A stretch of DNA of 33,268 nucleotides from Adineta steineri (taxonomy: Eukaryota): NCBI GenBank assembly GCA_905250115.1, contig CAJNOI010000629.1, positions 1-33,268 of the forward strand. The letters run 5' to 3'. The first letter of the stretch is position 1; each line of letters opens with the position of its first letter. The notes under the pieces were generated by a model. That model worked only from the letters and a program-made list of their open reading frames with translations. It was not told where the DNA came from and did not search any database. Shown in pieces: positions 4,657 to 9,354 of this stretch. The position numbers and the translations under genes were made by a program.

Positions 4657-6631
4657 ATGTACGGTGCTATTGACGAGCAAATACCTGTATCACCATCGCC
4701 TACAACTGAATTAATACCAGTTGAATTTAAAGTATATAAACGACGATGGCTTTATTTAGTTTGCATATGTTTGGCAAATATGTCAAATTCTATTGTAAGA
4801 ATTTTGTTTTATGTATATATATATAGACGAAAATAATTTTTATTTTAGTTATGGATTAATTTTGCATCAATTGCTAATATAGCAAAAAGTTATTTTGATG
4901 TTTCATATAGCGCGATTAATTGGCTTTCACTTATATTTATGATTATTTGTAGTATTTTTACATTACCATCAACATGGGCTATTGATCGATTTGGTATTCG
5001 ATTTGGAGTAAATTTTTTTTAACAAAATCAACGGAATAAAATTTATTTTTTTTATAGATTTTAACAGGTGTTTGGTTAAATTTAATTGGTGGATGTTTTC
5101 GTATTATTAGTACATGGGTATCAATCAAAGGTCGTTATCCAATTGTTTTTATTGGTAAAGATAAATTTAAATAGTTTCTTGTTTTTATCATGTATATATT
5201 TTAATTAAAATAGGACAAATGATTTGTGCCTTTGCTCAAACATTTACATTATTTTTACCAACAAAATTTGCATTTGTTTGGTTTCCTGACCATCAACGAA
5301 CATTGGCTAATAGTCTCTGTTTTGCCAGTAAGAAAAAAAAATAAAATGAAGATTAAAATTAATTGAAAATTATTTCCTAGCTAATTTTTTGGGTGTATTT
5401 ATTGGAACTGTTGCTCCACCAATTATTGTTCCACATGAAAGTCGAATACCTTTATTAGTTTGTTTAATTTTTTCTTTTAATATTCTATATTTAATAAAAA
5501 ATTTTCATTTAGCTTTATTTAACATTAATACCAGCTATACTTGCAGCTGCTTTATCATTTACTGTTCGATCATCACAACCACCAACACCATCATGTTTAG
5601 CTTCACTTGATGTTAAAATTCCATATAAATCAGTTTTTAAAAAAGTATAAAATTGATTTATTTGATTTATTTGAGAAAAATATTTCGTTTAGCTTTTAAA
5701 ATCAAAATCTTATTTAATTTTATTTGCTACTGTTGGTATTGGTTTATCAAATAATAATACACTTTCAACATTATTACAACAAATCATGTGTCCATTCGGT
5801 TATGATAATATAGCTGTTGGTTTATGTATTGGTTGTTTTATTATTTTTGGCCTTATTGGATGTATTCTTATGGGATATATAGCGGATAAAACGAGGAAAT
5901 TAGAAGAAGTAACAAAAATTTTATATTCAGTTGGAGTTATTTCACTAATGTGTATTGGATTAGTAAGTAGAAAATTAACGAAAAAAAGCAGCCTTATCGA
6001 TTTGATTTATCTGAATAGTTCATTGTAAATGAAGTTAAATCGTATTGGCTTTATCTAATATTTGCTATAGCTGGTTTATCTAATGCACCTGTACTTCCAT
6101 TAAGTTTAGATCTGAGTATTGAAACGTATGTAATTTCTACATATTAATTTTCCATTAGTAATAAATCTATCAATTATTTTTAGAACCCATCCAGTTCCAG
6201 AAGCTACTGTTGCAGGTATATTCATGGTTGCCAGGTAAATAATAATAAAATCTATGGTTTATATTTATCTGAATAAAATTTTTCATGATTTCTTTTTTAT
6301 AGTCAATTAGGAAGTATTCTTGCTATTGTAATTTTACCATATTTTACAATGGCACCTTCTGCTCATCAAATGAGTATACAAAAGTGTGAAGTTCAAGATG
6401 GAAAACTTAATGACATTCGAGATTATTCTAGTATAACTATTCATTCTGTTAAAATATAATTAAAAATTTATTCTTTGTTTAGTTCCTGTATATATTTTAG
6501 CAGTAACATCGGTTGTTCTTGTTATTTGTTTCATTACATTTTTCCATTGTGAATATCGTCGACAAACAAAAGATGAAATTGAACATCATGCAGCAGCAAT
6601 AGTTGTTGACACTAATCCAGAATTAGCATAA
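4657..6631 (+). CDS. SLC49/FLVCR-family MFS transporter, paralog B, complete. CDS exons 4657..4794, 4849..5007, 5058..5154, 5214..5327, 5381..5457, 5513..5644, 5693..5962, 6019..6125, 6184..6234, 6303..6430, 6483..6631 (474 codons, stop TAA 6629..6631)
   Basis: Spliced product begins MYGAIDEQIPVSPSPTTELIPVEFKVYKRRWLYLVCICLANMSNSI/LWINFASIANIAKSYFDVSYSAINWLSLIFMIICSIFTLPSTWAIDRFGIRFG/ILTGVWLNLIGGCFRIISTWVSIKGRYPIVFIG/QMICAFAQTFTLFLPTKFAFVWFPDHQRTLANSLCFAS/NFLGVFIGTVAPPIIVPHESRIPLL... This aligns with the remembered FLVCR1 N-terminal half ([81 protein letters not shown]). All 10 introns are 47-68 bp with GT (or GTATGT/GTAAGT) donors and polypyrimidine-AG acceptors; every phase closes. The C-terminal half is collinear with paralog A at 1..1010. 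Confidence 0.8.
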
Positions 6632-6768
6632 ACAATAAAAAATAGCATGTGCAATTATTGTAAAATACTTTTCGTTTTTCATATTTATTCGAAGCATATA
6701 GATATTGTTTCTTTATTTCAAAAATCTATAAGATTACTTTGTAATTTCTATTTTTTTCTTCTTTATAG

Positions 6769-7423
6769 ATGTCTGTAACATTACATACAGATTTAGGTGA
6801 TATTAAAATTGAACTCTATTGTGACCAATGTCCAAAAGCATGTGAAGTAAATATTTAAATAAACAGAAGAATAGATTGAATTTATTAAAAAATAAATTTA
6901 GAATTTTTTGGCATTATGTGCAAGTAATTATTATGATAATTGTTTATTCCATCGAAATGTTAAAGGTTATATGATTCAAACGGGTGATCCAACTGGATTA
7001 GGTAAAGGTGGTCAAAGTATTTGGGGAGAATATTTTCCAGTAAGATTATTAATACATAACTTATCATTTATTTATTTATTTGTTTATTTAGGATGAAATT
7101 AATGAACATTTAAAAGTAAATTATCAGATCGAATTCCATTCTTTTTCTTTTTAAAGCTAAGAAATATATTTATTTAGCATAGTCAACGTGGAATGGTTTC
7201 AATGGCTAGTCGTGGTGCGAATACAAATGGTTCACAATTCTTTATAACTTATGGAAAACAGACGAATCTTGATGGAAAATATACTGTATTTGGTAAAGTC
7301 ATTGATGGACTTGAAACACTTGATGAATTAGAAAAAATACCTGTGAATGAAAAAACATATCGACCAGAAACAGATGTTCGAATACAACGTGTTACTATTC
7401 ATGCGAATCCATTAGCTGATTAG
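6769..7423 (+). CDS. PPIL3: Peptidyl-prolyl cis-trans isomerase-like 3 (cyclophilin PPIL3); CDS exons 6769..6846, 6902..7039, 7092..7115, 7178..7423 (stop TAG 7421..7423)
   Basis: Spliced protein [161 protein letters not shown] is near-identical in length and sequence to remembered human PPIL3 ([58 protein letters not shown]...[49 protein letters not shown]...). Includes a 24-nt micro-exon at 7092..7115. Donors GTAAAT, GTAAGA and GTAAAT. Confidence 0.9.
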
Positions 7424-7486
7424 AATGAATTATAAATATAGGTTCTCTTTATTCTAGATATTAAAAAGATTATAATATAGATTATT

Positions 7487-8053
7487 ATGGTTTGCGATAA
7501 TTGTAAGTCTTATGAATTTGAAAGAAAACAGTTTTGAAAAATATGATATATTATTTAGGTCAAAAGAAAGTAGGTACTGTTGCGACACAAGATGTTTGGA
7601 AAAGTATGTTTATAAATTGTTTTTCTATATATCTAAATTTATTTTATTAGGTGGTTCTCGTAATACAGTTGGTATGAATTTTCTATATTATTCTTCGATA
7701 TGTTTTATATTAAATTTTAATAGAAAGTGGTGGTAGAAAATTAAATGAAAATAAATTATTAACAGGAAAATCAACACGGTTTGTAATATTTATTGATATA
7801 TATACAATTACATATATCTTATTTAACTATAGATACAGCCCATATACAACAAAATTCAATAAATGTAAGGTTTGTAAAGCTACAGTTCATCAACCAGGAG
7901 GTACTTACTGCCAAGGTTTGTTCTGTAATTCTATTTATTCTATCAATTATTTTTCTTTCTTTTCATTTAGCTTGCTCGTATAAATTAGGTATCTGTGGAA
8001 TGTGTGGTGTAAAAATTTTACAAACAAAAAATTATCGTCAATCGGCTGTTTAG
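7487..8053 (+). CDS. CRIPT: Cysteine-rich PDZ-binding protein (CRIPT); CDS exons 7487..7502, 7559..7603, 7724..7778, 7833..7915, 7971..8053 (93 aa, stop TAG 8051..8053)
   Basis: Spliced product MVCDNC/QKKVGTVATQDVWK/KSGGRKLNENKLLTGKSTR/YSPYTTKFNKCKVCKATVHQPGGTYCQ/ACSYKLGICGMCGVKILQTKNYRQSAV matches remembered human CRIPT (MVCEKCEKKLGTVITPDTWKDG...ESGGRKLNENKALTSKKARFDPYGKNKFSTCRICKSSVHQPGSHYCQGCAYKKGICAMCGKKVLDTKNYKQTSV), including the C-terminal PDZ-binding -SAV/-TSV. Exon 1 is only 16 nt (GTAAGT donor at 7503). All phases close. Confidence 0.85.
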
Positions 8054-8170
8054 AAAATATTTGTTTTCTTTTAAATAAATAAATATATATATATATATAT
8101 CTCATTCTCATTTGATATGTAATATAATTAATTTCTTGTTTGTGTTGTAGAAAATAAATTTTTTTCTAAA

Positions 8171-8823
8171 ATGTTTGCTGTCATACGAAGTCTATTAAGT
8201 TTAGCTTCGGTCGCAGCTGTACATCGTTGTAATTCCTATGCATATTTTTCACTTGCCACTCCTTGTGAGTTTATTTATATAAAAGAGAATTTAATTGAAA
8301 TACAACAATAAATTCTTTTAGATTGTTCAGCAAAACAATCAGATGAAAAAACAAAAGCACAAACAGCTAAACCTACAGAAGATACAATCTTTGGCAAAAT
8401 TGCAAGAAAAGAAATAAAAGTTGATTTACTTCATGACGATGATCAGGTTTTATTCTATAGAAGAAACAAAAAAGCATAGAACTATTTTTAAAATTTAGTG
8501 TGTAGCATTTCATGATGTAAATAAACAAGCACCATCACATTTTTTAGTTATTCCAAAAGAACCTATTCCACAATTATCAGCTTGTACATCATCACATGAA
8601 AAAGTATATGAAATTTTTGTAAGAATTGTTTGAAGAATTTTCTCTTTTGATTTAGTTACTTGGCCATTTGTTAATTGTTGCAACACAAGTTGCTAAAAAA
8701 CAAGGTCTTTCCGATGATGGTTATCGTTTAGTTATTAATAATGGACGAAATGCATGTCAGAGTGTTTATCATCTTCATATTCATGTACTCGGTGGAAGAC
8801 AACTTGATTGGCCACCTGGTTAA
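8171..8823 (+). CDS. Histidine triad nucleotide-binding protein (HINT1/HINT2-like, with an N-terminal presequence-like extension); CDS exons 8171..8264, 8322..8446, 8499..8603, 8656..8823 (stop TAA 8821..8823)
   Basis: Product [163 protein letters not shown] matches the HINT core (IFGKI.R.EIPA..; C.AFHDISPQAPTHFLVIPK; GYRMVVNEG..GGQSVYHVHLHVLGGRQM.WPPG), including the His-x-His-x-His triad HLHIH. Exon 1 donor is GTGAGT (8265). The intron-1 acceptor is ambiguous between AG at 8321 and AG at 8330; both are in frame. Confidence 0.85.
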
Positions 8824-8924
8824 TTAATAAACTGTTTCTTTCTTTTTCTAAATAAAATAAAACATTCGCTTTTTTTTAGTAGTATTGATATTATTAAACA
8901 TTATTTCTTTTTAAGATTTCAGAA

Positions 8925-9354
8925 ATGTCGTTTGAAGAACAGAGTGAAGTGCTTAATTTTCAATCAATGGATAATGAGAGTTTTATTGTACCAAAAATAC
9001 CTAGATTTAATCTTGAAACTTTACATCCAGAAGCACAACGACGTTTAGAAATGCTTGGTTTAATAACTACAAATGAAAATGGAGAAAAACAAGATGCAAC
9101 AGATGAAGAAATCGACGCTGTTTTACATAAAACAGTACCAAATGAAAATCCGGATATTCTAGCTGATAAATATATGATGCAACATGGCATCTATCAATTA
9201 TTTAAAGTAAAATATTAGATAATCATTTCGAATATTCAATTATTATTTTTTATAGAAATTATCAGGAAAAATTGTCCTTACTCGACCTAAAGATCCAATT
9301 CATTTTATGATCGACGAATTAACAAATCGTATGGAAGATAAATCAGAAGTCTAA
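8925..9354 (+). CDS. Small DPY-30-motif protein (DPY30-like; RIIa-type dimerisation/docking fold at the C-terminus); CDS exons 8925..9206, 9256..9354 (127 codons, stop TAA 9352..9354)
   Basis: C-terminus ...DKYMMQHGIYQLFK/KLSGKIVLTRPKDPIHFMIDELTNRMEDKSEV aligns with the remembered Dpy-30 motif of human DPY30 ([46 protein letters not shown]), notably RPxDPIxF. The motif is only completed after splicing out a 49-nt GTAAAA..tttttatAG intron at 9207..9255; unspliced, the ORF stops at 9218. The N-terminal 80 aa were not recognised. Confidence 0.6.

Follow-up and report, generated by a model that had tools for sequence, protein, structure and literature searches.

We analysed a 33,268-nucleotide (nt) stretch of DNA from the bdelloid rotifer Adineta steineri, hereafter the window, in which five closely spaced genes (MFS-B, PPIL3, CRIPT, HINT and a Tex55-like gene) had been proposed in an initial annotation to form a polycistronic unit resolved by spliced-leader (SL) trans-splicing. 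The window is AT-rich (~27% GC) and carries eukaryotic genes, whose introns are ~50 nt long and take the form GTAAG...TTTAG. The five genes lie head to tail, are functionally unrelated housekeeping genes and are bounded on their 5' side by a divergent gene, listed last:

4657..6631, + strand: MFS-B, an SLC49A3-like major-facilitator transporter of 473 amino acids (aa), 11 exons and 10 introns (Pfam MFS_1, E = 6e-34); the first cistron.
6769..7423, + strand: PPIL3, cyclophilin-like, 161 aa, 4 exons and 3 introns, with a 24-nt microexon at 7092-7115 (Pfam Pro_isomerase).
7487..8053, + strand: CRIPT, 100 aa, 6 exons and 5 introns (Pfam Cript, E = 3.5e-32).
8171..8823, + strand: HINT, a HIT-family protein with an N-terminal extension, 163 aa as in the annotated model, 4 exons and 3 introns (Pfam HIT, E = 3.8e-26).
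8925..9354, + strand: Tex55-like gene, 126 aa, 2 exons and 1 intron, with a borderline match to Pfam Tex55 (E = 6.9e-6); the last cistron, followed by a convergent ACE-like gene.
3101..4579, - strand: NMNAT-kinase gene, intronless, 493 aa (Pfam CTP_transf_like and Pkinase), divergent from MFS-B and forming the 5' boundary of the array.

Spliced gene models bore out the five + strand genes of the initial annotation, together with their coordinates and their stop-to-ATG gaps of 137 nt (MFS-B to PPIL3), 63 nt (PPIL3 to CRIPT), 117 nt (CRIPT to HINT) and 101 nt (HINT to Tex55-like). For MFS-B the model matches an annotated A. steineri protein (P0121) at 100% identity, against 84% for the orthologue of A. 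ricciae and 80-82% for those of Rotaria. Every cis-intron of the five genes (22/22) ends in TAG. The description of the fifth gene as a DPY-30-motif gene found no support in Pfam: the protein has no Pfam Dpy-30 match at E <= 1 and matches only Tex55, and orthologues were found only in bdelloids. A protein search with PPIL3 returned no bdelloid orthologue among its matches, the best of which was 76% identical, yet a bdelloid PPIL3 is annotated on the regions L005-L012 considered below; the index behind this query evidently misses some close relatives. The intronless PPIL3 loci that the same search returned (L001-L004) are unrelated to the array and were set aside.

Orthologous regions were compared from a second A. 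steineri assembly (L005), A. ricciae (L007/L008), R. sordida (L009-L011), R. magnacalcarata (L012) and a metagenomic bdelloid (L020); metagenomic fragments L016-L019 add only the HINT and Tex55-like region, giving up to seven bdelloid sequences per spacer. The initial annotation had asked whether gene order and spacing persist in relatives, and they do: in Adineta, in Rotaria, through CRIPT in a lineage represented by the contig L014, and, minus CRIPT, in L020. The order NMNAT-kinase (- strand), MFS-B, PPIL3, CRIPT, HINT, Tex55-like is common to A. steineri, A. ricciae, R. sordida and R. magnacalcarata. Full genomic loci also keep the ACE-like gene (- strand) after the Tex55-like gene, the exceptions being R. 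sordida, without the flanking ACE-like gene, and L020, without CRIPT. Across relatives the spacers measure 123-161, 55-98, 110-117 and 84-112 nt, in array order. The spacing that characterises SL-resolved operons (at most ~100 nt, extending to 250 nt, on the same strand) is thus present in the window and is similar in six other bdelloid sequences. In the metagenomic bdelloid L020 (7611-7683) HINT follows PPIL3 after 71 nt, behind the conserved CRIPT-acceptor block TTATTCTAGATA; an operon can absorb the loss of a middle cistron in this way. One A. steineri assembly (L006) breaks synteny at 12016, 46 nt past the MFS-B stop, and continues into unrelated genes. This is probably a scaffold misjoin rather than a rearrangement, because a single N stands at the junction.

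The spacers are otherwise poorly alignable and saturated between Adineta and Rotaria, and their most conserved blocks are polypyrimidine-AG (Yn-AG) motifs 5' of each ATG. We scored candidate AGs with a position weight matrix (PWM) built from the 33 cis-intron acceptors within the window. The candidate acceptors, with the SL junctions predicted from the conserved AGs (marked by a slash where the motif is written out), are:

4648..4656, + strand: MFS-B candidate acceptor aatttcTAG, adjoining the ATG; PWM 2.0; predicted junction 4656/4657, followed by ATGTACGG.
6751..6768, + strand: PPIL3 candidate acceptor tttttttcttctttaTAG, adjoining the ATG; PWM 9.0, in the top 1% of AGs; predicted junction 6768/6769, followed by ATGTCTGT.
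7447..7460, + strand: CRIPT candidate acceptor ctttattcTAG/ATA, with its G at 7457 (-30), 34 nt past the PPIL3 stop; PWM 5.2; predicted junction 7457/7458, followed by ATATTAAAAAG.
8136..8150, + strand: HINT candidate acceptor ttgtttgtgttgTAG, GU-rich, with its G at -21; PWM -4.6, poor as a cis acceptor; predicted junction 8150/8151, followed by AAAATAAATTT.
8904..8915, + strand: Tex55-like candidate acceptor tttctttttaAG/ATT (ctttttaAG/ATT), with its G at 8915 (-10); PWM 4.2; predicted junction 8915/8916, followed by ATTTCAGAAATG.
8869..8879, + strand: cttttttttAG in the HINT to Tex55-like spacer, with its G at -46; PWM 4.4; present in 6/7 sequences and a possible alternative acceptor for the Tex55-like gene.

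Conservation of these sites is pronounced. The MFS-B site is invariant in six of seven bdelloid sequences, and the seventh has tttttcAG/AT before its ATG. At PPIL3, YnTAG/ATG is kept in 7/7 sequences despite a changed pyrimidine tract. In the PPIL3 to CRIPT spacer alignment (105 columns), all 11 fully invariant columns fall inside the acceptor block TTnTTnTAGATA, for which the consensus is TTnTTnTAG/ATA at -30. The HINT block ttgtttgtgttgtag is invariant at 14/15 positions in a four-sequence alignment, and across relatives the pattern is ttgtttgtRttgTAG/A at about -17 to -21; since it is GU-rich, this block could double as a downstream element for CRIPT 3'-end formation. The Tex55-like site reads Yn(A)AG/AT at about -9 to -15 in 7/7 sequences; acceptors in AAG account for 2/33 of the cis introns in the PWM set. 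The conserved CRIPT and Tex55-like sites rank in the top 7-10% of all AGs in the window by PWM. Seen in this single sequence, only the PPIL3 site, among those of the array, is clearly above chance as an acceptor. The motifs quoted in the initial annotation are all present, but by PWM they exceed chance only in part in the window alone, and two of them gave way to other sites. For CRIPT the conserved site is tttattcTAG/ATA, with its G at 7457 (-30), rather than aatatAG; for the Tex55-like gene atttcAG (8916-8922) is missing even in the A. steineri assembly L005, and the conserved site is ctttttaAG/ATT, with its G at 8915.

The spacers carry four further elements:

8074..8083, + strand: CRIPT poly(A) signal AATAAATAAA, with AATAAA 21-39 nt past the stop in 5/5 aligned sequences.
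6721..6740, + strand: inverted repeat AAAATCTATAAGATTACTTT, AATCT-N3-AGATT followed by UAYUUU, 29-48 nt 5' of the PPIL3 ATG; single copy in the window.
6659..6667, + strand: TGTAAAATA in the MFS-B 3' untranslated region (UTR), ~28 nt past the stop.
4641..4650, no strand assigned: near-palindrome ATTACGCAAT in the spacer between the NMNAT-kinase gene and MFS-B, 7-16 nt 5' of the MFS-B ATG; single occurrence in the window.

Poly(A) sites within the spacers, which the initial annotation had recommended looking for, are indicated at one junction and not at two others. The CRIPT to HINT spacer is the only one with a conserved canonical signal, its AATAAA lying ~50-60 nt before the HINT acceptor. 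The MFS-B to PPIL3 spacer contains neither AATAAA nor ATTAAA in 5/7 sequences, and no conserved AATAAA precedes the acceptor between PPIL3 and CRIPT. The arms of AAAATCTATAAGATTACTTT are invariant in six bdelloid sequences with a variable loop (TAT, ACG, AAA), and the repeat is absent from the L014 lineage; its hairpin is weak (-1.1 kcal/mol). The hairpin with UAYUUU presumably resembles the Ur element of nematodes. It could be an RNA processing element, or else a transcription-factor site or internal promoter element. A TATA-box reading of CTATAAGA 5' of PPIL3 was ruled out because its TATAAG core varies between species while the arms of the inverted repeat are invariant. The element in the MFS-B 3' UTR aligns as TGTAMAATA in A. 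steineri, A. ricciae, R. sordida and R. magnacalcarata, and also occurs in the metatranscriptome contig L021; it looks similar to a PUF/FBF-type element and may be a site for PUF-protein binding.

RNA covering adjacent cistrons exists in related bdelloids. An MFS orthologue (P0125) that is ~77% identical to all other bdelloid copies is encoded on the Logan assemblies of SRR5248463 and SRR5248462, and this uniform distance marks it as a third deep bdelloid lineage, known through CRIPT and from RNA only. In one contig of this lineage (L014, from SRR5248463; 3306 nt), MFS (476 aa), PPIL3 (161 aa) and CRIPT (100 aa) are each encoded by an uninterrupted open reading frame (ORF). The contig has none of the 18 introns of the genomic copies, yet it keeps spacers of 135 nt and 98 nt with their Yn-AG motifs. 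A contig from the second run (L015) reaches 113 nt into the MFS to PPIL3 spacer. Since introns are absent, both contigs must be RNA-derived, and cis-spliced RNA covers the spacers. Read-through RNA of the kind that the initial annotation had proposed to seek is therefore at hand, in related bdelloids only, across MFS, PPIL3 and CRIPT. A third contig, L021, comes from a JGI metatranscriptome; it is closest to Rotaria and holds the 3' part of an intronless MFS and the whole following spacer, ending exactly at ...cttgctttgtAG (ctttgtAG). In R. sordida the matching AG adjoins the PPIL3 ATG. A break at a k-mer branch normally runs k-1 nt into the exon, so this end suggests RNA molecules that terminate at the AG. 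Such molecules could be the upstream product that trans-splicing sets free, or an mRNA of the upstream gene with its 3' end at the acceptor. Continuity in L014, L015 and L021 is also compatible with read-through or overlapping transcripts.

Bdelloids are known to trans-splice a single 23-nt leader, GGCTTATTACAACTTACCAAGAG (PMC3795323), which is added to >50-60% of their mRNAs (PMC1925144, PMC4824033). The SL 23-mer has no match in the window, where as many as 3 mismatches were allowed, or in the genome and viral contig collections, and the 14-nt 3' core of the leader is absent from L001-L015, including every fetched genomic copy of the region from named species. A metagenome scan for the 3' end of the leader fused to the first part of either PPIL3 or MFS-B gave two chance contigs, in which the upstream sequence is not SL. 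Rfam and tRNA scans of the window gave no match, and hence no SL RNA or small nuclear RNA.

Our results suggest that the five genes form an SL-resolved operon, which we regard as the best single explanation of the array and to which we assign a probability of about 0.55. This reading rests on the distance of 34 nt between the PPIL3 stop and the CRIPT acceptor, on the conserved operon-like spacing, on the spliced RNA contigs that span several cistrons and on the end of L021 at an AG. The 34-nt distance is too short to hold a terminator, a promoter and a first exon. The cluster would be transcribed, at least partly, as one polycistronic precursor, with the five genes sharing a single promoter. 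This precursor would be cis-spliced first, after which the 23-nt bdelloid leader GGCUUAUUACAACUUACCAAGAG would be trans-spliced to the Yn-AG before each ATG, cutting out single-gene mRNAs at the AGs predicted above. The acceptor would leave a genomic 5' UTR of 30 nt for CRIPT, 21 nt for HINT and 10 nt for the Tex55-like gene; at MFS-B and PPIL3 the AG abuts the AUG, so that all of the 5' UTR would come from the leader. The junctions between MFS-B and PPIL3 and between PPIL3 and CRIPT would be of a type resembling those of Ciona, with no conserved AAUAAA and with upstream RNA apparently reaching the acceptor AG. The junction between CRIPT and HINT would be of a type resembling those of Caenorhabditis elegans, with a conserved AAUAAA and, ~50-60 nt beyond it, a GU/U-rich tract with the acceptor. 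A broader proposition, that SL-resolved operons in bdelloids are genuine, conserved across the split between Adineta and Rotaria and built from both kinds of junction, with AAAATCTATAAGATTACTTT as the counterpart of the Ur element, is more tentative, and we would put its chances at slightly below even. That the Yn-AG sites are trans-splice acceptors, whatever the form of the transcription unit, appears highly likely from their conservation and from known bdelloid biology.

Several observations weigh against an operon, and some of them speak for the view that these are tightly packed but independent genes. On that view each gene would have a small promoter of its own, in the spacer or the upstream gene, each pre-mRNA would be trans-spliced with an outron overlapping its neighbour, and the multi-gene contigs would reflect read-through or overlap. 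We consider this a serious competitor, although the odds are somewhat against it. Very small promoters must exist at this locus, as the divergent ATGs of the NMNAT-kinase gene and MFS-B are only 77 nt apart (4580-4656; 63-83 nt in relatives). The conserved near-palindrome ATTRCGYAAT in that spacer, kept in 6/7 sequences and presumably akin to a bZIP (C/EBP/PAR-type) site, may be a candidate element of a tiny bidirectional promoter. Short gaps are thus not limited to tandem pairs (77 nt for the divergent pair, 117-210 nt for convergent ones). The claim in the initial annotation that the gaps are too short for conventional independent promoters plus terminators is weakened by the divergent 77-nt and convergent 117-nt pairs. 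Genes outside the array, too, have strong acceptor-like sites before their starts: on the - strand, the NMNAT-kinase gene scores 9.7 at -6 and the ACE-like gene 10.6 at -24. More generally, a site with PWM >=5 lies within 45 nt 5' of the ATG in 36% of starts, against 9-10% of control windows; the sample comprised 47 annotated starts of bdelloid genes, and many of these genes are orthologous to one another. Acceptor-like sites are therefore a sign of trans-splicing and not of an operon specifically. The RNA evidence comes from relatives of A. steineri only. The contig L014 also crosses the divergent spacer between the NMNAT-kinase gene and MFS-B into an antisense gene; contig continuity in a compact genome is therefore not proof of a sense polycistron, and overlapping outrons or read-through could equally explain it. 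The exact end on an acceptor AG is seen in one contig (L021) with no visible poly(A) tail, and neither reads nor contigs were recovered in which the SL is joined to an exon of the array. The inverted repeat 5' of PPIL3, if it is a transcription-factor site or internal promoter element, would favour independent transcription. Conserved order is not specific to the array, as flanking genes outside it are syntenic as well, and no PPIL3 lies in the 870 nt downstream of the probable orthologue in Didymodactylos. Lastly, PMC7986045 states that in rotifers operons 'have not been reported'. Independent genes are harder to reconcile with the 34 nt available between PPIL3 and CRIPT, with spacer lengths conserved at operon-typical values and with the lack of a conserved poly(A) signal after MFS-B and PPIL3. 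They are also difficult to reconcile with L021, in which spliced MFS coding sequence ends on the PPIL3 AG, requiring transcription through the spacer and cleavage at the AG. The earlier proposal of an SL-resolved polycistron is thus supported by the known bdelloid SL, the conserved Yn-AG motifs and the spanning RNA contigs, and held back by the missing SL junction and by the sites outside the array.

Two other explanations appear very improbable. At 27% GC, T-rich runs that end in AG are common, and the motifs could in principle be a functionless product of composition. The MFS-B and HINT sites indeed lie at background by the cis-acceptor PWM (3-26 such sites per kb per strand), the MFS-B, HINT, CRIPT and Tex55-like sites are no better than 7-60% of all AGs, and two of the sites flagged in the initial annotation are not conserved. 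Chance is largely refuted by conservation, as the Yn-AG blocks are the best-conserved parts of otherwise saturated spacers and the PPIL3 AG/ATG persists in all seven sequences although its pyrimidine tract has changed. The roughly four-fold enrichment of acceptor-like sites 5' of ATGs over controls and the end of L021 on an AG argue in the same direction. It is equally doubtful that the AGs are cis-splice acceptors serving fused or chimeric mRNAs or 5'-UTR introns. Public gene models do fuse MFS with PPIL3, CRIPT with HINT, HINT with Tex55 and MFS-A with FBXO31, but which genes are fused varies from assembly to assembly within a species or between sister species (for instance L007 versus L008, L009 versus L010), a typical sign of gene-predictor error where gaps are short. 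Furthermore, L014 keeps stop codons and unspliced spacers between complete ORFs, and each protein is a complete, stand-alone member of a conserved family.

A second operon-like pair, formed by MFS-A and FBXO31, is present elsewhere in the window. The 3' part of MFS-A, a paralogous MFS gene, ends with its stop at 1008-1010, and the FBXO31 ATG is at 1086:

1011..1085, + strand: spacer between MFS-A and FBXO31, 75 nt, ending ttttagttttAG/ATG; PWM 9.5, in the top 1% of AGs.

The AG/ATG and its pyrimidine tract are kept in A. steineri, A. ricciae and L020, and the acceptor-like motif that the initial annotation had placed at the FBXO31 start is confirmed by this score. A similar motif claimed for the NMNAT-kinase gene is likewise present, but this gene is on the minus strand and diverges from MFS-B. 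The gene itself has an unusual architecture, a fusion of a cytidylyltransferase-like (NMNAT-like) domain with a protein-kinase domain, and is intronless amid intron-rich neighbours. Public annotations are chimeric at short tandem gaps, as for MFS with PPIL3 in R. magnacalcarata, CRIPT with HINT in A. ricciae and HINT with Tex55 in R. sordida. Fusions of MFS-A with FBXO31 occur in several assemblies, and chimeric models also join LSM, MFS-A and FBXO31; the fusions (tables for L005-L012) vary by assembly and are apparently a systematic annotation problem. Between ~16400 and 23000, ~6.5 kb of the window has no ORF of >=100 aa on either strand, while the rest of the window is gene-dense.

The distribution of SL trans-splicing and of operons across the animals is patchy, and it is still debated whether they evolve together. 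If our reading is correct, this array would be the first SL-resolved operon described for Rotifera, so far as the literature searched shows. A conserved five-gene operon would add a phylum, next to the chaetognaths within Gnathifera, and would make this a second lineage in which junctions of the Ciona kind occur. Operon-aware annotation would also correct chimeric bdelloid gene models.

The closest precedent is SL trans-splicing in bdelloids themselves, described by Pouchkina-Stantcheva and Tunnacliffe in 2005 (as cited in PMC1925144, PMC3795323 and PMC4824033). An acceptor 5' of the ATG is to be expected for many genes of this same group of organisms, which fits the motifs seen here; in these accounts the work is not said to describe operons or polycistronic precursors. 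Rotifers are elsewhere listed with trans-splicing but no operons on record (PMC7986045, PMC2481426), the entry for operons being 'ND' in PMC2481426, and no report of bdelloid operons was found in the literature accessible to search. Operons of the C. elegans SL2 type share with the array same-strand, unrelated housekeeping genes ~100 nt apart in conserved order, and the CRIPT to HINT junction has the same succession of AAUAAA, U/GU-rich tract and acceptor. They use a second, operon-specific leader; none of this kind is known in bdelloids, for which only one SL sequence is reported (PMC3795323). [quoted passage not shown] These systems resemble the array in using one leader for monocistronic and operon genes alike, in the end of L021 on an AG and in the lack of a conserved AAUAAA after MFS-B and PPIL3. 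They differ in that the array has 63-137 nt between stop and ATG, and the position of its 3' end comes from one assembled contig of a relative. In the chaetognath Paraspadella gotoi, operons are defined as at least two same-strand genes less than 250 bp apart, at least one of which carries an SL (PMC12460157). The array shows this spacing, its use of the SL being predicted from acceptor motifs, and chaetognaths and rotifers are both gnathiferans.

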